Below, piece after piece: positions 13,961 through 40,851 of a stretch of DNA of 64,000 bases. A model generated the notes under the pieces. The model made no database searches. It was not told the origin of the DNA and worked only from the letters and a program-made list of their open reading frames with translations. The position numbers and the translations under genes are program-made. Every line of letters starts with the position of its first letter. Positions within the stretch are counted from its first letter, which is position 1. The DNA comes from Candidatus Hydrogenedentota bacterium (GTDB lineage Bacteria; Hydrogenedentota; Hydrogenedentia; Hydrogenedentales; SLHB01), in the NCBI GenBank assembly GCA_020848835.1, contig JADLHJ010000061.1, positions 29,456-93,455 of the forward strand, in the 5' to 3' direction.

Positions 13961-15421
13961 CTACTTTCCGCCTTTACGAAGTAAGGTCTGTAATTTTGCA
14001 ACTATCGATGCGTGGTTCACTTCGTTTGTGAGGTTTTTCATTTCGGCGGGATCGCTCTCGTGATCGTACAACTCGACGCCTGCGCGGCCTTCGTCCCACT
14101 CGGTATAGCGGTACCGTTCGGTGCGGACGCTGCGACCCATGAAATCTTTTCCGTCGATCTTGCGCGTCACTTGCGAATAGGCTGCGTGGTCCCACTGCGC
14201 TTCTGGTTTCTGCACCAGCGGTTTCATGCTGTGGCCTTCGGTGCGCAAATCTGCGTTGATACCGCAGAGATCGGTGAGCGTCTTGTGCAGCGATACCAAT
14301 TCTACGGGCCGCGTGCAGTCCTTTCCATTCGCGCTATTATTCGGGACCGATATGATGAGGGGCACGCGCGCGGATTCCTCAAAGATGCTCATCTTTTGCC
14401 ATAGATTTTTCTCGCCGAGGTGGTACCCGTGATCGCCGTGAAATATGACGATGGTGTTATCCGTTAGTTTGTGTCGATCCAGTGCATCGAGCAATTGCCC
14501 GACTTGCACGTCCATGAAAGTCGTTGCTGCGGAGTAGGCCTGAGTCGCGGCGCGCTTGAGATCGTCGCTCATGGCAAGCTGCATGGGTTTTTGTGTGGCC
14601 AGCGCCGCTGCCGGAAACAAATCCTTGTTGTTGGGCGCAACCTCGGGCACCTTGATCGCCTCGCGCGGATACATGTCGTAATACTTCTTCGGAGCGATGT
14701 ACGGTGTGTGCGGGCGGAAGAAGCCAACGGCGAGATAGAATGGTTTGTCTTCCTTTGCGCGTGCTTCAAGCATTTCGATCGCGGTGCCCGCGATCTTTCC
14801 GTCCGTCTGGTCCGAATCGACACCGTCGGACGCCAACCAGCTCAACGTGCCGCCGGTATCCTCCAGTTTTTTACCGGTGACGGTGCGCGCATTACCGTCC
14901 GGCCCAAGTTCGAGCACTTCGACGATTCCGATGTCATCGATATCGCGTCCCTTCGGATTGATTCGCTGTTCCCATGATGTGGGATCATCAAGACCATCAG
15001 TGCCGATCTGGCGGGGCACGCCGTAGTGATAGATCTTCCCTACGCGCGCAGTGCTGTAACCGGCTTTCTGAAAACTTTGCGCGATTGTCACTGCGTCGTG
15101 GATTTCATCACGGAAATGTTTTTGATTGTCGTATAGCTTGAGTGTGTCCGGGCGCAGGCCCGTCATAAATGATGCGCGGCTGGGGTTGCAGAGCGGGAAC
15201 TGGCAATACGCATTTTGGAATTGCACGCCGCGCGCCGCGAGGCGATCGATGTTGGGCGATTTTACCATTGGATCGCCGTAACAGCCGAGGTGGTTGCAAA
15301 GATCGTCGGAGATAATGTGCAGCACATTCATCCGCTTTTGCGCAGCGTTAGCAGAAATCGCCGCCGTTGCGCATAGTGCTGCTGCCGAGCCGAGAAACTG
15401 TCGCCGATCCATGCTTTTCAT
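13961..15421 (-). CDS. Arylsulfatase-family sulfatase (formylglycine-dependent) with Tat signal peptide.
   Basis: CNPSRASFMTGL C-x-P-S-R formylglycine signature. Start refined to MKSMDRRQFLGSAAALCATAA (twin-arginine motif). The ORF track's 15691 start adds 90 unlikely residues. Confidence 0.85.
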   Translation of the reverse strand: MKSMDRRQFLGSAAALCATAAISANAAQKRMNVLHIISDDLCNHLGCYGDPMVKSPNIDRLAARGVQFQNAYCQFPLCNPSRASFMTGLRPDTLKLYDNQKHFRDEIHDAVTIAQSFQKAGYSTARVGKIYHYGVPRQIGTDGLDDPTSWEQRINPKGRDIDDIGIVEVLELGPDGNARTVTGKKLEDTGGTLSWLASDGVDSDQTDGKIAGTAIEMLEARAKEDKPFYLAVGFFRPHTPYIAPKKYYDMYPREAIKVPEVAPNNKDLFPAAALATQKPMQLAMSDDLKRAATQAYSAATTFMDVQVGQLLDALDRHKLTDNTIVIFHGDHGYHLGEKNLWQKMSIFEESARVPLIISVPNNSANGKDCTRPVELVSLHKTLTDLCGINADLRTEGHSMKPLVQKPEAQWDHAAYSQVTRKIDGKDFMGRSVRTERYRYTEWDEGRAGVELYDHESDPAEMKNLTNEVNHASIVAKLQTLLRKGGK

Positions 15422-15536
15422 AGTTGTCGTCCCCATGCATGTTTGCCCTTTGCAGTGGCGGCATCGTAACAAAGCGCATCCAAGAATGGTATATACTTTG
15501 AGGAGCGGTGGATCCGAACGAAATGGAGGGTGTGCC

Positions 15537-15704
15537 ATGAAACGCACCAAAGAAGTCTCCAAGAAGAAGCGCCTTTTTATTGACGAACTCGAACGACCGG
15601 CTATGGCATTGACGGTGACTACCGCAGCCAAATGCGAAGAAGGCGGCAAGTGGTGCTGGATGACGACCATGGCCGTTGGCGAAGAGAGCACGAAGGCCGT
15701 CTAG
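15537..15704 (+). CDS. Putative graspetide (omega-ester-containing RiPP, plesiocin-like) precursor peptide, 55 aa.
   Basis: ATG at 15537 with GGAGGG RBS 8 nt upstream. Sequence MKRTKEVSKKKRLFIDELERPAMALTVTTAAKCEEGGKWCWMTTMAVGEESTKAV: leader carries LFIDEL; core has two TTxxxxEE units. Lies immediately upstream of an ATP-grasp ligase gene. Hidden inside ORF-track frame 15294..15704. Confidence 0.6.
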   Translation: MKRTKEVSKKKRLFIDELERPAMALTVTTAAKCEEGGKWCWMTTMAVGEESTKAV

Positions 15705-15724
15705 TCCACCGTCATATCTCGCAG

Positions 15725-16639
15725 ATGGGCACGGTAATCATTGTCGGTGCGCCGCACGATCCTCAGGTCGCTCGCGTGCAAGACGAGATCCGGCTGCGAG
15801 GGGGGCGTTCGTTGCTGATCGACACCGACGCGTTTCCTGAAGAGGCAACGCTGTCTATGCGTGGTGCGGTGATCGATTACGAAGGACGTCCACTTCCAAA
15901 AGACATTTCGTCCGTGTATCTCCGCGCGCTGGGGGCCAATCCTCTTGCGCCGCGCTACAAAATGGATCTCAAGCATCGGACGCATGGGCTACTCGCACAG
16001 ATGGACGAGCGCCTCGCGCTACTGGCGTCGATTATTCTCACCCTGAAGAAGCGTGGTGTGCGCATTGTCAACGATCTGGAGGTCAACGCGCAGCATAGTC
16101 GCAAGCCCTATCAACTCTCGCTATTGAAGGAAGCTGGTTTGCGCGTTCCGCGTTTTGCTGCAACCAATGACCCGGAGACAGTTCTAAGTTTTGTGCGATC
16201 GGTAAAGCGAGCGGTCTACAAACCTGTTGGCGGCGGCGCTACGGTGCGTGCGGTGAACAAGCGCGATCTCACGCGCGCTCGCCTAGAATCGCTTGCACTT
16301 GCGCCGGTGCTGTTTCAAGAACGCGTGGACGGCGTGAGCCTGCGGGTATACGTCGTGGGCGGAAGTTGCGTTGCCTCGGCGGAGATTCATTCCTCGGAAC
16401 TCGACTATCGGCGAAAGGAGGATGCCGTCATCGCAACAGTATTGATCAAGGCCGAGCAGCGCGCATGCATCGATGCGGCGCGGGCGTGTTCGATGACGTT
16501 TTCGGGTGTCGATTTGATCCGGGGCGTGAACGGGTTTTACGTGCTCGAATGCAACCCTTCGCCGATGTTCGCTGTGTTTGAGAAGAAAACCGGTCTGGAC
16601 GTGGCAAAGCCTTTGGCGCGGTTTCTGCTCAAACGTTGA
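15725..16639 (+). CDS. RimK/MdnC-type ATP-grasp ligase (graspetide macrocyclase-like).
   Basis: N-terminus MGTVIIVGAPHDP...RSLLIDTDAFPEE parallels microviridin ligase MdnC (MTVLIVT...FRFDTDRFPTE). ATP-grasp core ...YKPVGGGATVRAV...LFQERVDGVSLRVYVVGG...LECNPSPMF. ATG at 15725. Confidence 0.75.
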   Translation: MGTVIIVGAPHDPQVARVQDEIRLRGGRSLLIDTDAFPEEATLSMRGAVIDYEGRPLPKDISSVYLRALGANPLAPRYKMDLKHRTHGLLAQMDERLALLASIILTLKKRGVRIVNDLEVNAQHSRKPYQLSLLKEAGLRVPRFAATNDPETVLSFVRSVKRAVYKPVGGGATVRAVNKRDLTRARLESLALAPVLFQERVDGVSLRVYVVGGSCVASAEIHSSELDYRRKEDAVIATVLIKAEQRACIDAARACSMTFSGVDLIRGVNGFYVLECNPSPMFAVFEKKTGLDVAKPLARFLLKR

Positions 16640-16645
16640 CGCGCA

Positions 16646-17449
16646 TTAAGTACCCGCTTTTGAAATGCATTGGAAGGGTTTAGCCGTCTCTATGGCGGGC
16701 TCCGAATGCCCGACAGGATTCGCCTTCGCCTGTTCCAGCGACCCGTGTTTGGCGAGTTCTTCCTCGGTGAGCGTGCGGCGCATGGTGCCGAACAGCCAGT
16801 CCGCAAGTGGCAACAGAAAATTCACGTTGGCTTCCATGTCCACATGGTGGATGTAGTGATGGACTTCCAAGAATTTGGACCATTTCTGCCGGGCAATCCA
16901 GGGGTGTAAATGCGGGTAGTGGATAACGTCATGCACGCGCACGAACAGATCGGAGACAATTGTGAGCGCGACGTAAAGCCCGATTAGGAAGGGGACACTA
17001 CCTGTAAGTAACCACGCCGGCAGGCAAATCGTGCAGGTGCCTAGCACCATGTAGAACGCGAAGTGGCTCAGCTTGACGGTCGCGTTGCCCAGCGGTGTGG
17101 TGTGCAGTTCGGAGACGTCACCACCGCCAATCGGATGCCGCCGGACCGGGCCGTTCGTAACGTAACGCCACGTTGGAAAAATTGCGCCGTGGTGTCCCTT
17201 GTGATGTATCTCGTATATGCGTCGTAAAAAAGGAATCACTACGCGGTGATAGACATAACGATGGACGAGCCACTCCCAGGGTGACGCGGCTATTGGCAAT
17301 GCCAGGACGCCCAGCCAGAACGAGATGCCCCAGCCTAAGCCATTGTCCGGCAAGAGCCGCACCGCGAATACAATGCTCGTGAGCACGGTGGTCAACAGCA
17401 GAAACATTGCAGCGACTCGCGGAAAAGAAATAGTGACTTGCGTCTTCAT
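16646..17449 (-). CDS. Fatty acid hydroxylase superfamily membrane protein (sterol desaturase-like).
   Basis: His boxes HRYVYH, HHKGHH and HHYIHH. Multiple TM helices. Confidence 0.7.
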   Translation of the reverse strand: MKTQVTISFPRVAAMFLLLTTVLTSIVFAVRLLPDNGLGWGISFWLGVLALPIAASPWEWLVHRYVYHRVVIPFLRRIYEIHHKGHHGAIFPTWRYVTNGPVRRHPIGGGDVSELHTTPLGNATVKLSHFAFYMVLGTCTICLPAWLLTGSVPFLIGLYVALTIVSDLFVRVHDVIHYPHLHPWIARQKWSKFLEVHHYIHHVDMEANVNFLLPLADWLFGTMRRTLTEEELAKHGSLEQAKANPVGHSEPAIETAKPFQCISKAGT

Positions 17450-17476: not shown

Positions 17477-17833
17477 TTAGAACGCGTTGGATTTCCGTTC
17501 GTATTCCTGCCGCGCGCGGCGGAACTGCACCTGAATACCGGGATCGTAAGACGGGTCGTGGCTGGTGCGCCACATGTCAATGAGTTGGATGATGCGCATG
17601 TCGTACTGCGGCGTATAGTTGTTGATCAGATACATCAACTCGTTCTTGACGCGCATCGCCTTTCCGTCGCCGCCTTGTGCGCTCTTTGTCATCAACTCGC
17701 GCCGGCCCGCTTCAATCCGGTCACGAAATGCCTGATGGTCCTGCGTGGTTGCGTTCGACCCGCGAACTTTGCGTCTTGCCTCTTCGCGAATGCGCATCTT
17801 GAAGTCGGACTTTTTCATTGCTCCCATGGCCAA
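17477..17833 (-). CDS. Hypothetical protein (118 aa).
   Basis: ORF only; no recognisable motif. Confidence 0.4.
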   Translation of the reverse strand: MAMGAMKKSDFKMRIREEARRKVRGSNATTQDHQAFRDRIEAGRRELMTKSAQGGDGKAMRVKNELMYLINNYTPQYDMRIIQLIDMWRTSHDPSYDPGIQVQFRRARQEYERKSNAF

Positions 17834-22168: not shown

Positions 22169-22540
22169 ATGAATCGCGTGACACATTTTGAAATTGCGGC
22201 TGCCAATCCTGAAAAGGCGGCGCAATTCTATCGTGAAGTGTTCGGCTGGAACGTCGCGGGCTGGCCTGGCGACGATGAGTATTGGACTCTGACAACCGGG
22301 CCGGAAACCGAAGAAGGCATCGATGGCGGCGTTTATGGCAAGAAAAATGATGCTCAGCAGCCGGTAACGGTGTCCGTGTCGGTGAATTCGATTGATGACT
22401 ACGTCGCTCGCGTGATCGCACGCGGCGGAAGGGTCGTAGTGCCGAAGCGCGAGATATCGGGAGTGGGCTGGCTCGCGTATTGTTGTGATTGCGATGGCGT
22501 CGTATTTTGCCTCCATCAAGAAAATCTAGTCGCGGAATAA
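22169..22540 (+). CDS. VOC/glyoxalase-family protein.
   Basis: MNRVTHFEI...AAQFYREVFGW, a typical glyoxalase/bleomycin-resistance fold N-terminus. ATG at 22169. Confidence 0.65.
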   Translation: MNRVTHFEIAAANPEKAAQFYREVFGWNVAGWPGDDEYWTLTTGPETEEGIDGGVYGKKNDAQQPVTVSVSVNSIDDYVARVIARGGRVVVPKREISGVGWLAYCCDCDGVVFCLHQENLVAE

Positions 22541-32201: not shown

Positions 32202-33938
<1,737 letters not shown>

Positions 33939-33939
33939 G

Positions 33940-35151
33940 ATGCCGCAGTTCCAGTACGAGGTGAAGAAGGGGCCAGGGCCAGCCACGTCGGGTGTGCTCG
34001 AAGCGGAGAGCCGCCGCGCCGCTGCCGCGCGATTGCGCGACATGGGCTACTTTCCGATCTCGATCGAGGAGTACGCTGGCGAAAAGCAGAAGGATGTTTT
34101 GCTTCGCGCGATCACGCGCGTCCGCCTCAAAGAGCGCAATATTTTCTTTCGTCAACTCGCGACGCTAATCGAATCGGGCATGCCTTTGACGCGCGCCCTC
34201 TCAACCATCGCGCAACAAACCACGAATTCAAGATTAATCACCGTAGTCGAGCAACTTCGCGATGACGTGCAGAAGGGCAGCACCTTCGCGGAAGCGATGG
34301 AGCGGCACCCAAAAATCTTCACGTCCATGCACTGCAACCTTGTGCGCGCGGGTGAGACCGGCGGCATGATAGAGGAAGTTTTGTGGCGCATGGTGCAGTT
34401 CGGCGAGCAGGACGAGGAGCTTCGCGCCAAAGCGGTATCTGCAATGATTTATCCGGCCATCCTGATGTTCATGGGTACCGCAGCGATTTTCATTTTAACT
34501 TCGTTTGTTTTCCCAAAATTTCTATTGCTCTTCAAAGACTTTGGCGTGGAATTGCCCGTGCCCACGAAGGTTGTCCTCGCCATCTGCGGATTCATGGGCA
34601 ACTGGTGGTGGGCGGTGCTTCTCGTTGTCATCGCGATAACCTTCGGCGTCGTTTCCTATTGGAGGACGCCGGTGGGGCGCGTGTTTTTCGATCGCCTGGT
34701 GCTGCGCGTTCCCGTGTTACGAATGGTCATACAGAAATATGTGATGGCCCAATTCGCACGTACGCTAGGCACACTGCTCGATAACGGCGTGCCGGTGTTG
34801 CGGTCACTGCGGATCACTGTTGAAACCTTGAGCAACCGCGCAATTGCCGAAGAAGTCGATGTCGTGCAGTCGCGCGTGGCCGAGGGAGACAGCATCAGTT
34901 CGGGCCTTGCGCAGACGAAGCATTTTCCGCCGATGGTGGTGAACATGTTCGTAATTGGGGAAGAGAGCGGCAAGCTCGGCAACGTTACCAAGCGAATGGC
35001 GGATGCCTACGACATTGAAGTCGATCGCGCCGTGAAGACGCTGACGGCGCTGCTGGAGCCTTTAATGATTGTCATTATGGGCGTGCTCGTTGGGGGGCTT
35101 GTGATATCCATGCTCATGCCGATCCTAACCATGAGCGCAAACGTTTCGTGA
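33940..35151 (+). CDS. gspF: Type II secretion system inner-membrane platform protein GspF (two T2SSF domains).
   Basis: ~400 aa, 3 TM, duplicated GspF/PilC-type domains. Start overlaps the gspE stop (TGAGATG). Confidence 0.85.
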   Translation: MPQFQYEVKKGPGPATSGVLEAESRRAAAARLRDMGYFPISIEEYAGEKQKDVLLRAITRVRLKERNIFFRQLATLIESGMPLTRALSTIAQQTTNSRLITVVEQLRDDVQKGSTFAEAMERHPKIFTSMHCNLVRAGETGGMIEEVLWRMVQFGEQDEELRAKAVSAMIYPAILMFMGTAAIFILTSFVFPKFLLLFKDFGVELPVPTKVVLAICGFMGNWWWAVLLVVIAITFGVVSYWRTPVGRVFFDRLVLRVPVLRMVIQKYVMAQFARTLGTLLDNGVPVLRSLRITVETLSNRAIAEEVDVVQSRVAEGDSISSGLAQTKHFPPMVVNMFVIGEESGKLGNVTKRMADAYDIEVDRAVKTLTALLEPLMIVIMGVLVGGLVISMLMPILTMSANVS

Positions 35152-35169
35152 GACGTGGAGGAAACTAAG

Positions 35170-35574
35170 ATGAAAGCAAACGAAGGCTTTTCACTGCTGG
35201 AACTGATTCTCGTGATGGTCATCATGAGCATCCTCGCGGGCATGGTCGCCTTTGCCGTCGCGGGCCGCGGCAATCAGGCACGCGAAACACGCGCACGCGC
35301 GGACCTTTCAACCTATCAAAATGCAATTGAGGCATTCGCGCTGGAGCATCAGGACAAATATCCAAAGTCGATCAGCGAACTCGCGACGCCAAACAAGAAG
35401 GGTATCTCGTACATCCTCAAGATAAAGCCGGATGGATGGGGCAACGCCTACGTGTATTCCTATCCCGGTAAAAAGAACAAGTACGACCTGTATTCGATGG
35501 GCGCGGACGGAATTTCAGGAACCGAAGACGATCTTTCCGTGTGGGACGATGCAGAAAAGGAATCCGCGCAATAA
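35170..35574 (+). CDS. gspG: Major pseudopilin GspG (prepilin-type N-terminal cleavage/methylation).
   Basis: NEG|FSLLE prepilin site with Glu+5. C-terminal ...PDGWGNAYVYSYPGKKNKYDLYSMGADGISGTEDDLSVW matches the GspG signature. ATG at 35170, GGAGG 8 nt upstream. Confidence 0.85.
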   Translation: MKANEGFSLLELILVMVIMSILAGMVAFAVAGRGNQARETRARADLSTYQNAIEAFALEHQDKYPKSISELATPNKKGISYILKIKPDGWGNAYVYSYPGKKNKYDLYSMGADGISGTEDDLSVWDDAEKESAQ

Positions 35575-35583
35575 CGCGGTCGC

Positions 35584-36099
35584 ATGCGCGTGAGTTCGGT
35601 CAAGGATAAAGGCGGTTTCACCCTCCTTGAAATGGTCGTCGTTCTGATGATCGTTATGATCATGACCGCCGCGGTGTTGCCCATGTATCAAGGCTCGGTA
35701 ACCTGGGCGCGGCGCGATAAGTTCACGCGCGACATCGTAGCGCGAATGAAGTATGCGCAGGAACGCGCCATCGCGGACGTTACCGAATACCGCTTTTACC
35801 TTGACGAAAAAGAGGGCGAATTCTGGCTGATGCGTAGTGCGGGCAAGAAGGACGGAAAAGAAGAATTCGCCGAGGTCGATGACGCCGGTGCGACGCGTGC
35901 GCGGTTGCCTGAGTCGCTCGAATTCGACAAGCCAAAGGCCTCGCAGGACAAGGATCGCAAAGCGCATTACATTGCGTTTTACCCCGGCGGCGCCTGCGAC
36001 TATGCGACCGTGACGATGAAATATGATAAGACCGAGGAGATCACGATTAATACCAAAGGCCGGCTCGGTCAGCTCGAAGTAGAACGGGACGACAAGTGA
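35584..36099 (+). CDS. gspH: Minor pseudopilin GspH-like.
   Basis: KGG|FTLLEM prepilin N-terminus; position in operon. Confidence 0.65.
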   Translation: MRVSSVKDKGGFTLLEMVVVLMIVMIMTAAVLPMYQGSVTWARRDKFTRDIVARMKYAQERAIADVTEYRFYLDEKEGEFWLMRSAGKKDGKEEFAEVDDAGATRARLPESLEFDKPKASQDKDRKAHYIAFYPGGACDYATVTMKYDKTEEITINTKGRLGQLEVERDDK

Positions 36100-36581
36100 T
36101 CCGCGCGCGGCGTAATGAAGGCTGGGTGTTAATCGAGACGCTGGTGGCGATGGTGCTGCTGAGCGTTGGCGTCATGGCGATTAACCGCGCGCTGGTGGAA
36201 GCATTGCGAACGCGCGCAATCGCCAAAGACTATACGGTCGCGCGTTTCCTGCTCGATGAAAAGATGGGCGAATTGGAAATGCAGCCCGTGGTGAACGAAG
36301 GCGACAGCGGCGCGGGCGCGTTCAAGGATCAAGAACGCTTTTCCTATTCATGGTCGGTGGCGCGCGTCGATTTGCCGACGCCCCCGATTCCCGCAGAGTT
36401 GCAGCAGCTTTTCGTTGAGCCGCCAACCTTGCCGGAGCCGAATCTCGGACGCATATCGGTGACAATCAAGTGGACGCGCGCGGGCCGCGAGTTCGATGCG
36501 ACAGGGGAAACTTTGATCTCAGCGCAGCGTATTTTGACGCTGGAGGAGAAAAATGCGCTCGCGCAAACTCCAGCAAAATGA
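36096..36581 (+). CDS. gspI: Minor pseudopilin GspI-like.
   Basis: GTG start overlapping the gspH stop. NEG|WVLIE prepilin N-terminus, ~160 aa. Confidence 0.6.
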   Translation: MIRARRNEGWVLIETLVAMVLLSVGVMAINRALVEALRTRAIAKDYTVARFLLDEKMGELEMQPVVNEGDSGAGAFKDQERFSYSWSVARVDLPTPPIPAELQQLFVEPPTLPEPNLGRISVTIKWTRAGREFDATGETLISAQRILTLEEKNALAQTPAK

Positions 36582-37305
36582 TGGCTTCACACTGGCCGAA
36601 CTGCTCGTTGCAAGCACCGTGCTCGCGATCGTGCTCGGCACGGTGTATACCGCGTTTTCGTCGTCCGTGAGCATGTGGAAAATCGGTGAAGCGAATATCG
36701 CTGCGTTTCAAGACGCCCGCACGTCGTTGGATTTTGTCACGCGCGAGCTACAGAACATGGTGCCCGGCGCCGCGCACTTGTTCGTAGGTGACGATACAGA
36801 GTTTGAGTTTTATGCCGTTACCCGCCCCATGAACGTCGAAGACGGCGCGGAACCGCGTGTGCTCTGGATCAAATATCGCGTTAAGAACGATCCGAAATCC
36901 GAGGGTAAACTGTTTATTCGCGAAGAGCGCCCCGTGGAGAGTCCGCTGCCTTCCAAGGCGCCGGAAGACGGCAAGGTGGATGACACGATCGTGAAGCTTG
37001 GCAGCGAATCGCAATTCGAGCTGGCGGCCGGCGTGAAGAAGCTGGAGTTGCATTATTACTGGGTCCAGCCGAAGGAAGATGAAGGGCTGCTCGGCGCGGA
37101 TCCCGGCGCGCCCGCGGAATTTGTCATTCGAGACGAACACGAAGAAGGCGCGGGCATTCCGCAGGCGATTCGGATCGATCTGATCATGATCGATCCCAAC
37201 GCTGAAAAAGGAGAGACGAAGTTTTCGACTTATGCGGTAATGCATGGCCCGACGACGAAATTGACCGAAACATCGGTGGACGCCGAAGCCGTGGTGCCGC
37301 AATGA
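36553..37305 (+). CDS. gspJ: Minor pseudopilin GspJ-like.
   Basis: NDG|FTLAELLVA prepilin N-terminus, ~250 aa. Confidence 0.6.
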   Translation: MRSRKLQQNDGFTLAELLVASTVLAIVLGTVYTAFSSSVSMWKIGEANIAAFQDARTSLDFVTRELQNMVPGAAHLFVGDDTEFEFYAVTRPMNVEDGAEPRVLWIKYRVKNDPKSEGKLFIREERPVESPLPSKAPEDGKVDDTIVKLGSESQFELAAGVKKLELHYYWVQPKEDEGLLGADPGAPAEFVIRDEHEEGAGIPQAIRIDLIMIDPNAEKGETKFSTYAVMHGPTTKLTETSVDAEAVVPQ

Positions 37306-38285
37306 AGCATCGCGAAGAAGGCTTTGTCTTGGTGGCGATGATTTGGATCGTGGCGATACTCGCGGTGATTACGCTTGGATTCGCGCACCGCGCGTTGCTC
37401 GATCAGCGCGCCGCAGCGCTGGCGTTGGACCATAGCAAGGCACAATACATGGCGCGCGGCGCGGTGAACTACGCCGTTGCCGATATGCGTAACAAGGCAT
37501 ACGTGGACGGCCTCATCGAGCGTGCGCGCGCGCAGCTGACCGGCGCAGCGCAAGCAAACGCGCCGATCGGTGAAACAGTGCGACCACTTCGTAAATCGCC
37601 GAATCTACTTGCAGGCGATAGTTCGTATTCGGGTGCAAACGTTGGCGACGGCAACACCGCGTCGTATTCGGTCGCGGATGAAGAGGGCCACATCTCCGTG
37701 AACACGGCGCCGGAAGAGATACTTGATAATATCGATTCGCTCGGCATGCGCACCGTGTCCGCGATCATGCGCCGCCGCGATACCGAAGAAGCGCCAGAGG
37801 AGCGGGAGCAATTTCTCGCGATAGAAGAGATTCGTTTGCTCGACGACATTGACGAAGAGGACTGGCTGGGCGACGATGACACACCAGGCCTGCGAGATTT
37901 GTTCACCATCTACGGTGACGGCAAGATCAACGTGAACACAGCGCCCCGCGAAGTACTACTGGCTATTCCCGACATTGACGAAAGCACGGTTGATCGCATT
38001 GTCGGCTTTCGCCAGGGCGACGACGCGAAACTCGGCACCGAAGACGATCGCTATTTCCCGTCGCTTGAAACGATGTCGCGCCAGCTCGAAATCGATCCGA
38101 CAAGCCTTGCGCCACTCGCAAAGTATTGCACCTTCGAATCGCACTTTTTTACAATCACCGGCTTCGCCGCGCTGCGCCAGGGAAAAGTCCGTGCGTCAGC
38201 GCAGGCAGTCGTTCACGTACAGCCCGGGAGCGCCGCGGTGTTGACCTGGTCGGAGGGGGAATTTGGCCCGCAAGACGCATATTAG
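37302..38285 (+). CDS. gspK: Minor pseudopilin GspK-like.
   Basis: EEG|FVLVAM prepilin-like N-terminus lacking Glu+5, as in GspK. Two ...NVNTAP... motifs (HISVNTAPEEIL, KINVNTAPREVL) typical of GspK. Confidence 0.7.
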   Translation: MKHREEGFVLVAMIWIVAILAVITLGFAHRALLDQRAAALALDHSKAQYMARGAVNYAVADMRNKAYVDGLIERARAQLTGAAQANAPIGETVRPLRKSPNLLAGDSSYSGANVGDGNTASYSVADEEGHISVNTAPEEILDNIDSLGMRTVSAIMRRRDTEEAPEEREQFLAIEEIRLLDDIDEEDWLGDDDTPGLRDLFTIYGDGKINVNTAPREVLLAIPDIDESTVDRIVGFRQGDDAKLGTEDDRYFPSLETMSRQLEIDPTSLAPLAKYCTFESHFFTITGFAALRQGKVRASAQAVVHVQPGSAAVLTWSEGEFGPQDAY

Positions 38286-39744
38286 CATCCTGCAATTCGA
38301 CGAACGCACAATCACGCGTTTGCGCGTGAAGCGTTCGCCGAAGGGTGTGGATTGTGTGTCCTACGACGTCGAGTCCGGCGCGTGGTCCTATTCGGACGGC
38401 ACGCTTGCCGAAGCCGTGCGCACGTTCGCAAGGGCGCATCAGCTAGCAGAAGATTCCATTTGCACCGTGCTACCGCGTCATGAAATGACCGCACGTATCC
38501 TATCGCTGCCTACGCAGAGCGCCGTCGAAATCGAAAGCATGGTGCAGCTCAGCGCTGAGGAATATGTGCCCTATCCCGCGCACGAGTTGGTCATCGATCA
38601 GGCCGTGCTGCAAAAGAGCGGTGACGGCACATCGAAAGTCATTGCCGTGTTCGCGCACCGGGATGTTGTCGAGGCGCACGTCGATGTGTTGCGCAAATGC
38701 GGAATCGATCCAGAGCACATCTATGTCAGCACGGCATGCTTGGCATCGGCGCTGCAAGCGGCGCGCGTTGAGGAGCAGCGTTATGCGCTGGTAAATCTTG
38801 CATCTGGCGGAGTCGAAGTCCTGGTGATGGAAAATGGCAGGCTTTCCTATGGCCGCGGTGTAGCCGCACAGCACAATTGGAACAATCTCTCTCGCGCGGA
38901 TTCGCAGGAAATCGAAGACCTCGCGATGGAAGTCCGCGCATCGCTATCCGCGTATCGCCGTGAAAGCGAAGAAGGCGAAGGCGTTGACCGCATCTACGTG
39001 AGCTCCGACTATGCCGATTGTGCGGCCGCGGCGAACGCGCTCGCGGAAGCGACGGGATATGAGTGTGCCCCCGCGAAATTTGCGGCGTCGTTGTTCGAGC
39101 ACGGCTCAATTCCCGCGAAAGGATTACCGCTTGTCTCCGCAGGTGCGGCGCTTTCAGCGCAGGGCCGCGGCTCGCTCGCGATCAGCCTTGTGCCTGCGTC
39201 TTTGGTGCAGGCGCGGCAAACGGGCGAATTGCGGCGTTCGCTGCTCAAGGGCGGTGGCCTCGCCGCAGCGGTGGTGCTTTCCGCATTGGCTGTATTTGGC
39301 CAGGCCTATTATCAGCGCGCCTCGTACTCCGGCGAGCTTCAAAATCGCATTGACGCGATTAAGGAAACCGCGGAAACCGCGCGCAGCCGTCACGCGCAAT
39401 TGCTGCGGCTTCAGCAAAATCTCGATCGCCGCGGGAGCGCGCTCGAACTCCTGGCCGCGGTGATCGAGCTCATGCCGCGCGGCGGCATGACGATTACCCG
39501 CTTTGCTTATGCGCACAACGACGCACTGACGATTCAGGGGCGCGCGGAGTCGCAGGGTCTCGCGACGGATCTCGCCGATGCGATGCGCGCCGCAGGCGCG
39601 AAGGACATCCCGCAGTTTGCGCGCGTGCGCGGCGGTGCGTTCAAACAAGAGATGGAGCAGGACCGGCAGGTCTGGCAGTTCGAAATCATCGTGCCGCTCG
39701 CGCCGGAGGAAGTGACGGAAGAAGGCGAGGCCTCAAATGAGTAA
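38263..39744 (+). CDS. gspL: GspL-like protein: cytoplasmic actin-like (PilM-type) domain, one TM, periplasmic PilN-like domain.
   Basis: Domain order read from sequence: N-terminal ~280-aa soluble domain, TM GGLAAAVVLSALAVFG, coiled coil, C-terminal alpha/beta domain. Position between gspK and gspM. Confidence 0.55.
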   Translation: MARKTHISILQFDERTITRLRVKRSPKGVDCVSYDVESGAWSYSDGTLAEAVRTFARAHQLAEDSICTVLPRHEMTARILSLPTQSAVEIESMVQLSAEEYVPYPAHELVIDQAVLQKSGDGTSKVIAVFAHRDVVEAHVDVLRKCGIDPEHIYVSTACLASALQAARVEEQRYALVNLASGGVEVLVMENGRLSYGRGVAAQHNWNNLSRADSQEIEDLAMEVRASLSAYRRESEEGEGVDRIYVSSDYADCAAAANALAEATGYECAPAKFAASLFEHGSIPAKGLPLVSAGAALSAQGRGSLAISLVPASLVQARQTGELRRSLLKGGGLAAAVVLSALAVFGQAYYQRASYSGELQNRIDAIKETAETARSRHAQLLRLQQNLDRRGSALELLAAVIELMPRGGMTITRFAYAHNDALTIQGRAESQGLATDLADAMRAAGAKDIPQFARVRGGAFKQEMEQDRQVWQFEIIVPLAPEEVTEEGEASNE

Positions 39745-39756
39745 GGCGGCGCGCCA

Positions 39757-40851
39757 ATGCTAAAACGCTTCGCAAAACTTTCGCCGTCAGAGAAGCGGCT
39801 GTCCGTCATTGTGGCCGTGCTTTTTATTTTGGCCATTGCGATGGTGATCGGGTTTCGTTGCATGGACGCGCTGCAATTGCTGGACGAAACCATTGCGAGC
39901 CAGGAACTGCTGTTGCTCGATGATTCGCGCTATTCCGCGCTCGCGGGACCGGTAGACGAAGCGTACGACGCGATCGCCAAACAACATTCGAGCGAGTGGA
40001 CCCAGGAACAAATCCACGATCGGCTGCGCACCGAAATTGCGCGGTTGTCGTTGCGTCGGGTGCCGGACGAAGGCACAGCATTGCCCGCGGTGCAAAACCC
40101 CGGGGATTTGCTGGTCGATATTCGCGCGTGGCCCATGGGCGCGCTGGACGACAGCGGCGAAGGCTTCCGCACCTATCAAATCAACTTCCGCACAGAACCA
40201 ACGTCGATACAAAACATCGCGACATTTCTCGAACGCTTACAGCAAAGCCCGCAGGCCTTACGAGTGGAGGGTCTGGAACTCACGCGCCAGCCGTTGTCAA
40301 CCGAAGTAACCGCCGCATTCCGCGTCGCGCGCACAGTCATTGGTGAAGGGAAAGGCGCATCACCCGCGCCAGCCGTCGCGCAGGAAACGAGCGAAAAGCC
40401 AACGGGCAACTTAATTGAGAATGCCGATTTCGCCCAGTGGGACGCGCAAACTTCCAGCGCACCGGGGTGGAACGTATCGCAAGCGGCGTTGACCCTCGAA
40501 AAAGACATCGTTGCCGGCGGCGATAACGCGCTAGCGGTCCACGCGCAAGGCGCGAACGCCGAACTCTACCAGGATCGACAGCTTGTTGGCGGCGCGACAT
40601 ATGAAGTCACTTTTGTAGCAAAGGCGTCCGGCGCGGTGCGGTTGCGGATATTGAACAGCCTAAGCGGTGAAGCCATTGGCGGTGACGTGCAGTTGCAGCA
40701 AGGAGCTACCGGATATCAGTACCGGTACCGGTTCACGGCCCCGGGTGAAGCGGGCGCGAAGGTGTCCATTCGGCTCCCCATGTTTGTGATAGAGCAAAGT
40801 GGGGCCACACTCGTGCTCGACAACGTCAGCGTGCAGGAAGCGAGCGCATGA
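39757..40851 (+). CDS. gspM: GspM/PilO-like inner-membrane protein fused to a C-terminal CBM4/9-like (galactose-binding-like jelly-roll) domain.
   Basis: N-terminal TM VIVAVLFILAIAMVIGF followed by a PilO/GspM-like region (...YQINFRTEPTSIQNIATFLERL...LRVEGLELTR). C-terminal GNLIENADFAQWD...GATYEVTFVAKASG... resembles CBM_4_9. Confidence 0.5.
   Translation: MLKRFAKLSPSEKRLSVIVAVLFILAIAMVIGFRCMDALQLLDETIASQELLLLDDSRYSALAGPVDEAYDAIAKQHSSEWTQEQIHDRLRTEIARLSLRRVPDEGTALPAVQNPGDLLVDIRAWPMGALDDSGEGFRTYQINFRTEPTSIQNIATFLERLQQSPQALRVEGLELTRQPLSTEVTAAFRVARTVIGEGKGASPAPAVAQETSEKPTGNLIENADFAQWDAQTSSAPGWNVSQAALTLEKDIVAGGDNALAVHAQGANAELYQDRQLVGGATYEVTFVAKASGAVRLRILNSLSGEAIGGDVQLQQGATGYQYRYRFTAPGEAGAKVSIRLPMFVIEQSGATLVLDNVSVQEASA

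Follow-up and report, generated by a model that had tools for sequence, protein, structure and literature searches.

Layout of the locus

Two adjacent plus-strand genes at positions 15537-16639 of a 64,000-nucleotide stretch of Candidatus Hydrogenedentota DNA (contig JADLHJ010000061.1; the whole stretch is referred to below as the window) were analyzed and very probably constitute a cassette that directs the synthesis of a group 2 (plesiocin-type) graspetide. The first gene (15537..15704) runs from an ATG at 15537 to a TAG at 15702-15704 and encodes, in 55 codons followed by the stop, the peptide MKRTKEVSKKKRLFIDELERPAMALTVTTAAKCEEGGKWCWMTTMAVGEESTKAV; it was annotated as a PsnA-like graspetide precursor gene on the basis of its translation, its homologues upstream of related ligases and its codon differences among relatives. 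The second gene (15725..16639) begins with the ATG at 15725, 20 nt after the precursor stop and on the same strand, and encodes 304 amino acids (aa) plus stop; it was annotated as a PsnB-like ATP-grasp macrocyclase gene from sequence, profile and fold comparisons and from residue mapping. A Shine-Dalgarno-like GGAGGG is read directly at 15525..15530 (+), 6 nt ahead of the precursor ATG, and is kept in four relatives (L081, L083, L084 and L086) as TGGAGGGTGTGCC, i.e. TGGAGG(G)TGT(G/A)CC.

An initial annotation, made from the letters of the window alone, had given coordinates, a translation, a spacing and lengths for both reading frames, all of which matched the sequence. The mechanical list of open reading frames (ORFs) gives the 55-aa ORF no entry of its own; it forms the tail of a listed TTG frame (15294..15704). 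The proposal that this tail is a gene with its own ATG and ribosome-binding site (RBS) was borne out by the GGAGGG site and its conservation in relatives.

Upstream lies a sulfatase gene on the minus strand (~13961-15421, ~486 aa). Within the 486-aa product the Pfam match begins at residue 32; the sulfatase and precursor genes accordingly do not overlap and are separated by ~115 nt of divergent intergenic DNA (15422..15536, delimited by the flanking genes). This region presumably holds the promoter. A promoter and terminator scan of 15300-16900 returned no sigma-70 consensus and a single intragenic terminator-like site, which is under chance expectation.

GenBank already contains the exact 55-aa peptide under the name 'hypothetical protein IT367_01860', from a Candidatus Hydrogenedentes metagenome-assembled genome (MAG; MCC6152470.1, MCC6796307.1), where it shares one 164-kb contig with the ligase, and gene callers predict the 55-aa gene in every close relative. 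The term 'unannotated', used for the peptide in the initial annotation, is thus correct for the ORF track from which that annotation was made and incorrect for GenBank. The GenBank ligase is 328 aa long, which by arithmetic from the stop places its start at 15653, ~52 nt inside the precursor gene. Homologous ligases are 303-307 aa long, and the genes called in relatives and the alignment with PsnB back the ATG at 15725; the deposited start is probably too far upstream.

Family assignment of the ligase

Comparison of the ligase with solved structures by phmmer matched residues 3-302 to PsnB (7drm_A; E 2.4e-52, 181 bits). RimK was matched over the C-terminal part only (E 4e-11), and MdnB (E 5e-8) and MdnC (E 3e-7) were matched at 33-36 bits (MdnC, 33). 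A family profile built from 16 homologues for the structure comparison retained this order, with PsnB at E 1.7e-78 and 267 bits, RimK at E 3e-22 and 82 bits, and MdnB and MdnC at ~1e-15 and 60-62 bits. The ligase was modelled with AlphaFold2 (predicted local distance difference test score 92.8; predicted template modelling score 0.90) and the model was compared by Foldseek. The best 15 matches were all PsnB chains, with top template modelling (TM) scores of 0.89-0.90 (7drm_A, 0.89), from entries titled 'ATP-grasp ligase PsnB complexed with minimal precursor'; they were followed by CdnC, AMdnB, MdnC, PruB and MdnB, and only then by LysX and RimK.

The best NCBIfam matches of the ligase were graspetide maturases, aligned over the full length: TIGR04187 (SAV_5884; E 4e-25; ligase residues 3-301 on model positions 1-311/312; 88.7 bits against a cut-off of 350), TIGR04185 (MvdC; E 3.5e-21; 75.7 bits against 425) and TIGR04184 (MvdD; E 8e-18; 64.7 bits against 475). 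The RimK family model TIGR00768 was matched over ligase residues 104-299 only (E 1.2e-19; 70.8 bits against a cut-off of 143.4), and PRK10446 (RimK) gave 46 bits against 331. The only Pfam matches above threshold were the RimK-like ATP-grasp domain PF08443 (52 bits) and ATP-grasp_3; a weak match to the MvdD pre-ATP-grasp domain covered ligase residues 5-72 (E 0.004). In a neighbour-joining tree, which carries no bootstrap values, PsnB nests among ligases with TTxAxGEE precursors, adjoining the Hydrogenedentota clade.

A placement in the RimK/GshB clades, raised as a check in the initial annotation, was not found: by sequence, profile and fold ranking the ligase groups with graspetide macrocyclases. 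These comparisons support its assignment as a PsnB-type graspetide macrocyclase, related to PsnB over its full length. It had at first been described as MdnC-like, but its nearest relative is PsnB and not MdnC (181 against 33 bits). Group 27, a newly defined group rich in candidate phyla, was considered as the home of the clade and ruled out, its precursors being unrelated.

Functional residues of the ligase

Residue roles reported for PsnB by Song et al. were mapped onto the window ligase via the alignment; a chain offset of 20 was checked, and every named residue type matched. PsnB Arg72 and Arg213, both of which bind the core, correspond to R67 and R207, and the conserved loop D233-F234-R235 corresponds to D227-Y228-R229. 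The leader pocket Y171/I193/L196/V201/F203 is represented by Y165/L187/L190/V195/F197, and R181 and R192, which flank it, by R175 and R186. R67, R207 and D227-Y228-R229 are invariant in 16 clade members, in which Tyr replaces the Phe or Trp of the D(F/W)R loop, and most of the conserved PsnB-equivalent residues are likewise invariant across these 16. According to Song et al., conservation of the leader pocket and of Arg181/Arg192 is found chiefly among group 2a enzymes. In PsnB the second Glu is bound by Arg101 of the neighbouring subunit; this residue is not conserved in the window ligase, which has D94 instead. Song et al. found Arg101 to be conserved only in group 2a and, from the R101A variant, to be largely dispensable, which marks Arg101 as a subgroup feature and not as a requirement for activity.

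Leader and core motifs of the precursor

The peptide carries the leader motif LFIDEL at residues 13-18 (15573..15590, +), in which Phe14 is the counterpart of PsnA2 Phe15. Song et al. reported that PsnB binding and cyclisation depend on the LFIEDL of PsnA2 (residues 14-19), with Phe15 occupying a hydrophobic pocket of the enzyme; the likeness to this group 2 motif, pointed out when the locus was first read, agrees with their description of LFIEDL as the essential leader region. The motif also conforms to the clade leader consensus RL[FY]I[EDKRS]ELERP. Two TTxxxxEE units, the pattern given by Song et al. as the plesiocin core, start at 15618 and 15663, as had been noted. Unit 1, TTAAKCEE (residues 28-35; 15618..15641, +), has an atypical loop; unit 2, TTMAVGEE (residues 43-50; 15663..15686, +), is canonical. 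They are joined by the linker GGKWCWM (residues 36-42; 15642..15662, +), which includes Cys40. The precursor as a whole matched no Pfam or NCBIfam family.

Chance occurrence was assessed with 200 codon-block shuffles of the 64-kb window. LFI[DE][DE]L matched once in the six frames of the window, in the precursor ORF, and in none of the 200 shuffles. Paired TTxxxxEE units within 30 aa of one open frame likewise occurred once, in the precursor ORF, and in 0/200 shuffles, and single TTxxxxEE matches averaged 0.43 per shuffle. A third TTxxxxEE match in the window, at 22292 (TTGPETEE), was dismissed, as it is a lone unit with no leader and lies within the chance expectation of 0.43 per window.

Conservation, distribution and selection

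Homologous ligases were collected from one genome per species, giving 80 loci. Of these, L001-L029 (46-64% ligase identity) derive mostly from Hydrogenedentota MAGs, with a few labelled otherwise (e.g., Nitrospiraceae); the more distant loci belong to Actinomycetota, Planctomycetota, Omnitrophota, Melainabacteria, Paenibacillus and Thermoplasmatota. An ORF with a [TS][TS]xxxGE[ED] core is encoded in 70/80 loci, and a homologous short ORF lies directly upstream of the ligase on the same strand in 25 of the 29 Hydrogenedentota-type loci. The precursors of this clade share the leader MKRTKxxxK(K)RL[FY]I[EDKRS]ELERP followed by one or two TTxAxGEE cores, with single-core examples in L012, L015, L016 and L027. 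Distant clades share the leader KLFIE[ED]LE and have up to 20 core repeats. With the 55-aa peptide as query, a k-mer-indexed protein search yielded just 3 clusters, and six-frame motif scans of the loci were more informative.

In close relatives (73-90% ligase identity) the gene order is GFO/IDH/MocA, sulfatase (-), 55-aa gene, ligase, 116-aa gene (-), SDR and DUF2585, and it is identical in L081, L084 and L087. Codon differences in the precursor gene were counted against the window copy and amounted to 16 synonymous and 0 non-synonymous in L083, 28 and 5 in L084, 20 and 6 in L081, and 15 and 3 in L086; synonymous alternatives exceeded replacements in every segment of the peptide. Conservation of the small ORF in syntenic relatives, which the initial annotation had left to be checked, was therefore found together with signs of purifying selection (e.g., 16/0 in L083), and on these codon counts the precursor is read as a real gene under purifying selection.

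Several features of the wider family were recorded alongside. No recognizable precursor was present within 450 nt upstream of the ligase in L010, L017 and L023, which may be orphan ligases or have a precursor encoded elsewhere. Many Hydrogenedentota precursors (e.g., L012, L016, L025, L027 and L028) have a Cys right after a core (GEEC...), and their tails are short and basic (K[GA][KVAS]); the published group 2 motif, in the form quoted by the papers cited here, includes neither feature. Very long precursors with 5-13 or more TTxALGEE repeats, set apart by Pro-rich or acidic spacers, were found in L033, L044, L047, L050 and L056 (Actinomycetota, Planctomycetota and Patescibacteria), whereas Hydrogenedentota typically have 1-2 units. 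In the Omnitrophota loci L031 (~1302-1700) and L041 (~693-1100) the position directly upstream of the ligase lacks a TTxxxxEE precursor and is taken by an ORF that ends in a Cys-rich, SPASM-like stretch (CKECPYRLKCRGGCKNTAY); these ORFs may represent a radical-SAM-associated variant.

The first core unit and the two cysteines

A set of 113 distinct TTxxxxEE cores, drawn from 56 loci, served as the reference for the two core units. At position 3, L, M or Q predominates, F, Y, R, E and H are found as well, and Ala is absent from all 113; position 5 is V, L or I in 107/113 and was never Lys; and position 6 is Gly in 112/113 and was never Cys. The near-invariant family consensus is accordingly TT[LMQ]A[VLI]GEE, which unit 2 fits and from which unit 1 deviates at all three positions. 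Both units had been taken as plesiocin-type cores in the initial annotation; this is correct for unit 2, and unit 1, which keeps the TT and EE, is atypical for the group.

Within the lineage, the codons of unit 1 show 8 synonymous alternatives against 1 replacement (C33G), and its TT and EE are kept in all nine distinct peptide variants. The first units of L004 and L090 are canonical. Unit 1 could be a new variant that works or a stage on the way to loss. Cys33, in unit 1, and Cys40, in the linker, are both present in eight variants and both replaced (Gly33, Ser40) in the P0127 lineage; this paired pattern, which reflects one evolutionary event, suggests that the two residues may form a disulfide.

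Proposed mechanism

The gene structure, the homology between ligase and PsnB that is evident from sequence, predicted fold and functional residues, the leader and core motifs, and the conserved pairing of the two genes, with purifying selection on the peptide, all point to a plesiocin-type cassette, and the following course is proposed by analogy with PsnA2/PsnB. The 55-aa precursor would be translated from its strong RBS with a basic N-terminal leader containing LFIDEL, and Phe14 would dock in the ligase pocket formed by Y165/L187/L190/V195/F197 and flanked by R175 and R186. The ligase, expected to act as a dimer, would spend ATP to phosphorylate the gamma-carboxylate of a core Glu positioned by Arg207, and a Thr hydroxyl would displace the phosphate to give a side-chain omega-ester. 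Song et al. described this route for PsnA2/PsnB, in which Arg213 places the Glu next to ATP and the esters T32-E37 and then T31-E38 form via acyl-phosphate intermediates. On that analogy the inner ring of each TTxxxxEE unit would close first (T29-E34 and T44-E49) and the outer ring second (T28-E35 and T43-E50). The predicted product has two hairpin-like bicyclic units with four esters, a mass change of -72 Da. Leader removal and export would presumably follow as for other graspetides; the locus contains no gene for either.

The family is a known class of probable protease inhibitors. Plesiocin inhibits elastase and chymotrypsin with Ki values of 16 and 7.5 nM, and Psn-LLLR, a Leu-to-Arg variant of the plesiocin core, gained trypsin inhibition. 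By analogy, the mature window peptide is most likely a tight-binding serine-protease inhibitor.

Alternative explanations

Several observations weigh against a plesiocin-type cassette with two cyclised units. The three NCBIfam graspetide-maturase models, which describe other graspetide groups, were matched only under their cut-offs; the Arg101 equivalent is Asp94, and the clade consensus at this site is also Asp (AQxDEK); and no leader-removal protease or exporter was found among the scanned ORFs of the window. Unit 1 has neither the near-invariant Gly6 nor hydrophobic residues at positions 3 and 5 and may on that account be a poor substrate, and its counterpart in L091 (70% ligase identity), AEKAAKCDK, keeps AAKC and has lost the TT and EE, leaving a single core. 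Two broader alternatives concern the small ORF and the enzyme. That the small ORF is a chance frame between sulfatase and ligase, with the ligase substrate encoded elsewhere, would accord with the ORF list, which has it just at the end of a longer TTG frame, and with the three clade loci that have no upstream precursor (L010, L017 and L023). This is scarcely credible given the absence of the leader motif and paired cores from all 200 shuffles, the conserved RBS and the 16/0 codon differences of L083, which argue for translation, and the peptide upstream of the ligase in 25/29 clade loci; conservation effectively refutes it. It is also very improbable that the enzyme is a RimK/LysX-type alpha-L-glutamate or amino-acid ligase that extends or charges a small protein or another substrate. 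Its only above-threshold Pfam matches are the generic PF08443 and ATP-grasp_3, JGI labels homologues 'glutathione synthase/RimK-type ligase-like', and TIGR00768 is matched at 1.2e-19. The RimK matches, however, span only residues ~104-300 and fall under the cut-off, the PsnB match runs over the full length at 3-4 times the RimK bits, in the Foldseek ranking RimK and LysX come after every graspetide macrocyclase, the leader pocket and the graspetide-specific equivalent of Arg213 are conserved, and the partner peptide bears a plesiocin leader and cores.

The remaining alternatives stay within the family and concern unit 1. Cyclisation of unit 2 alone, with unit 1 a degenerating or re-purposed relic and a product of two esters (-36 Da), is a minority reading to which some real weight attaches. 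Unit 1 breaks three almost-fixed positions (Gly6 in 112/113 cores; Ala3 and Lys5 in none); Song et al. found that the backbone of Gly36 contacts PsnB Arg72 and that efficient cyclisation needed the native core; L091 has lost the TT and EE of the matching unit; and single-core precursors are known in the clade (L012, L015, L016 and L027). Set against this are the retention of TT and EE in all nine variants and the 8 synonymous alternatives against 1 replacement, which argue that the unit is functional, and the contact with Arg72 is made by a backbone amide, which any residue can supply. Rather less probable, and put forward tentatively, is that unit 1 and Cys40 together constitute a new core variant, in which two omega-esters and a Cys33-Cys40 disulfide would make a tricyclic module. 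If this were true, Ala and Lys would take the place of Leu or Met in the loop that unit 1 presents, the peptide would be a naturally occurring bifunctional inhibitor whose two units differ in protease specificity, comparable to the engineered Psn-LLLR, and PsnB-type ligases would accept cores that do not have the near-invariant Gly.

A plesiocin-type cassette remains the preferred explanation, and with it a GenBank 'hypothetical protein' and a generically named 'ATP-grasp domain-containing protein' each gain an assigned function. The finding further indicates that plesiocin-type graspetides are widespread in Hydrogenedentota, a little-studied candidate phylum known here only from MAGs, with the ligase present in at least 29 species-level genomes and accompanied mostly by short one- or two-core precursors. 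No mention of graspetides together with Hydrogenedentes was found in the literature. In the parts of the supplement text that were searched, for the RODEO update of 2026 and for Makarova et al. (2022), neither the accessions nor 'Hydrogenedent', LFIDEL or LFIEEL occurred; the cluster may have been catalogued before. The understanding of the class is unchanged, since the mechanism, the leader logic and the likely protease-inhibitor role are as established for PsnA2/PsnB. The novelty is modest and lies in the conserved atypical first core TTAAKCEE, the family itself being already known. The lineage amounts to a natural experiment on core tolerance, with TTAAKCEE beside a canonical unit in one 55-aa substrate, and close relatives with a canonical or a fully decayed first unit add to the comparison.

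Neighbouring genes and accessory functions

The neighbouring genes scanned with Pfam encode GFO/IDH/MocA, sulfatase, FA_hydroxylase-like, SDR, DUF2585 and HAD-like proteins. No GNAT and no ABC/PCAT exporter was found among these neighbours and 10 further ORFs, a scan that covered part of the ORFs of the window. All-against-all clustering of flanking ORFs returned no accessory gene conserved across the Hydrogenedentota clade. A 2026 RODEO survey of 801 group 2 clusters recorded an NHLM-type peptidase/ABC transporter in only ~31%, so that a stand-alone pair is the usual arrangement. The initial annotation had singled out the absence of a GNAT and an ABC exporter; this holds for the scanned ORFs and, in view of the survey, does not make the pair special.

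Downstream of the ligase and convergent to it, 16646-17449 (-) encodes a membrane protein of 267 aa that matches FA_hydroxylase weakly (E 3.8e-5, under the cut-off). This gene sits between the ligase and the 116-aa gene and is missing from that position in the syntenic loci L081, L084 and L087, which indicates a lineage-specific insertion. The ~116-aa protein encoded at 17477-17833 (-) has no Pfam match and is 81% identical to that of L084 (6927-7274, -); its gene is convergent to the ligase in close relatives and is not kept beside the ligase in the wider clade, and its position therefore probably reflects only local synteny.

Directly after the ligase gene, distant clades such as Omnitrophota and Planctomycetota encode a membrane protein that bears a HELGH motif. 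This gene was found in L031 (2690-3646) and in L034, L039, L041, L044, L048, L056, L062, L070, L074, L077 and L080, and is followed by an SPFH/Band 7 gene in six loci (L031, 3664-4434; L034, L041, L044, L048 and L056); of these two proteins, the HELGH protein alone clustered in the Bacillales loci (Paenibacillus and its relatives). The protein has a weak Peptidase_M50 match (E 0.0013), does not occur in the Hydrogenedentota clade, and is a candidate leader peptidase.

Elsewhere in the window, 32202-40851 holds a type II secretion or type IV pilus-like set that is unrelated to the cassette and comprises a T2SSE ATPase with an MshEN domain, T2SSF, a pseudopilin with an N-methylation motif, and T2SSK-like and PilM-like proteins.

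Comparison with known systems

RimK and LysX share the ATP-grasp catalytic domain PF08443 with the window ligase and reach TM scores of ~0.75. Their similarity is confined to the C-terminal two thirds of the ligase, and neither ribosomal protein S6 nor LysW is present as a partner, that place being filled by a peptide composed of leader and core. The group 1 system MdnA-MdnB/MdnC shares several features with the window pair: the same overall ATP-grasp fold, a leader Phe held in a hydrophobic pocket, and the MvdD pre-ATP-grasp domain weakly matched by ligase residues 5-72. MdnB and MdnC are, however, only 21-22% identical to the window ligase in structure-based Foldseek alignments (33-36 bits). 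Microviridins also differ in using two ligases, in combining esters with a lactam in a cage topology, in their TxRxPSDxDE core and in their leader, and the microviridin precursor family (PF12559) was not matched by the window precursor.

Among group 2 systems, RcpA/RcpB and RapA of Rheinheimera likewise combine a TTxxxxEE precursor with a single ATP-grasp maturase (PMC11626197). Co-expression of RcpA and RcpB in E. coli gave 4-5 dehydrations, with the esters detected by methanolysis (PMC11626197). The Rheinheimera cluster differs in its peptidase domain RcpC, which cuts at a GG site, and in belonging to a locus with several biosynthetic gene clusters (PMC11626197), whereas the window pair stands among carbohydrate-metabolism genes, with no peptidase or exporter in the scanned ORFs.

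The closest counterpart is PsnA2/PsnB of Plesiocystis pacifica (PDB 7DRM-7DRP), in which a single ATP-grasp macrocyclase is 36% identical to the window ligase over the full length (TM 0.89). The two systems share the equivalents of Arg72 and Arg213, the D(F/Y)R loop and the leader pocket, as well as the leader motif LFI(E/D)(D/E)L, repeated TTxxxxEE cores and a locus with no tailoring enzymes; the gap from the leader motif to the first core is 9 residues in the window peptide and 11 in PsnA2. PsnB differs from the window ligase in having Arg101 in place of Asp94 and DFR in place of DYR. PsnA2 has four cores, against two in the 55-aa window precursor, the first of which is TTAAKCEE and not of the TTxAxGEE type, and the window peptide has in addition two Cys, one in and one after core 1. 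Finally, PsnA2/PsnB comes from a member of the Myxococcota, whereas the host of the window pair belongs to the Hydrogenedentota.

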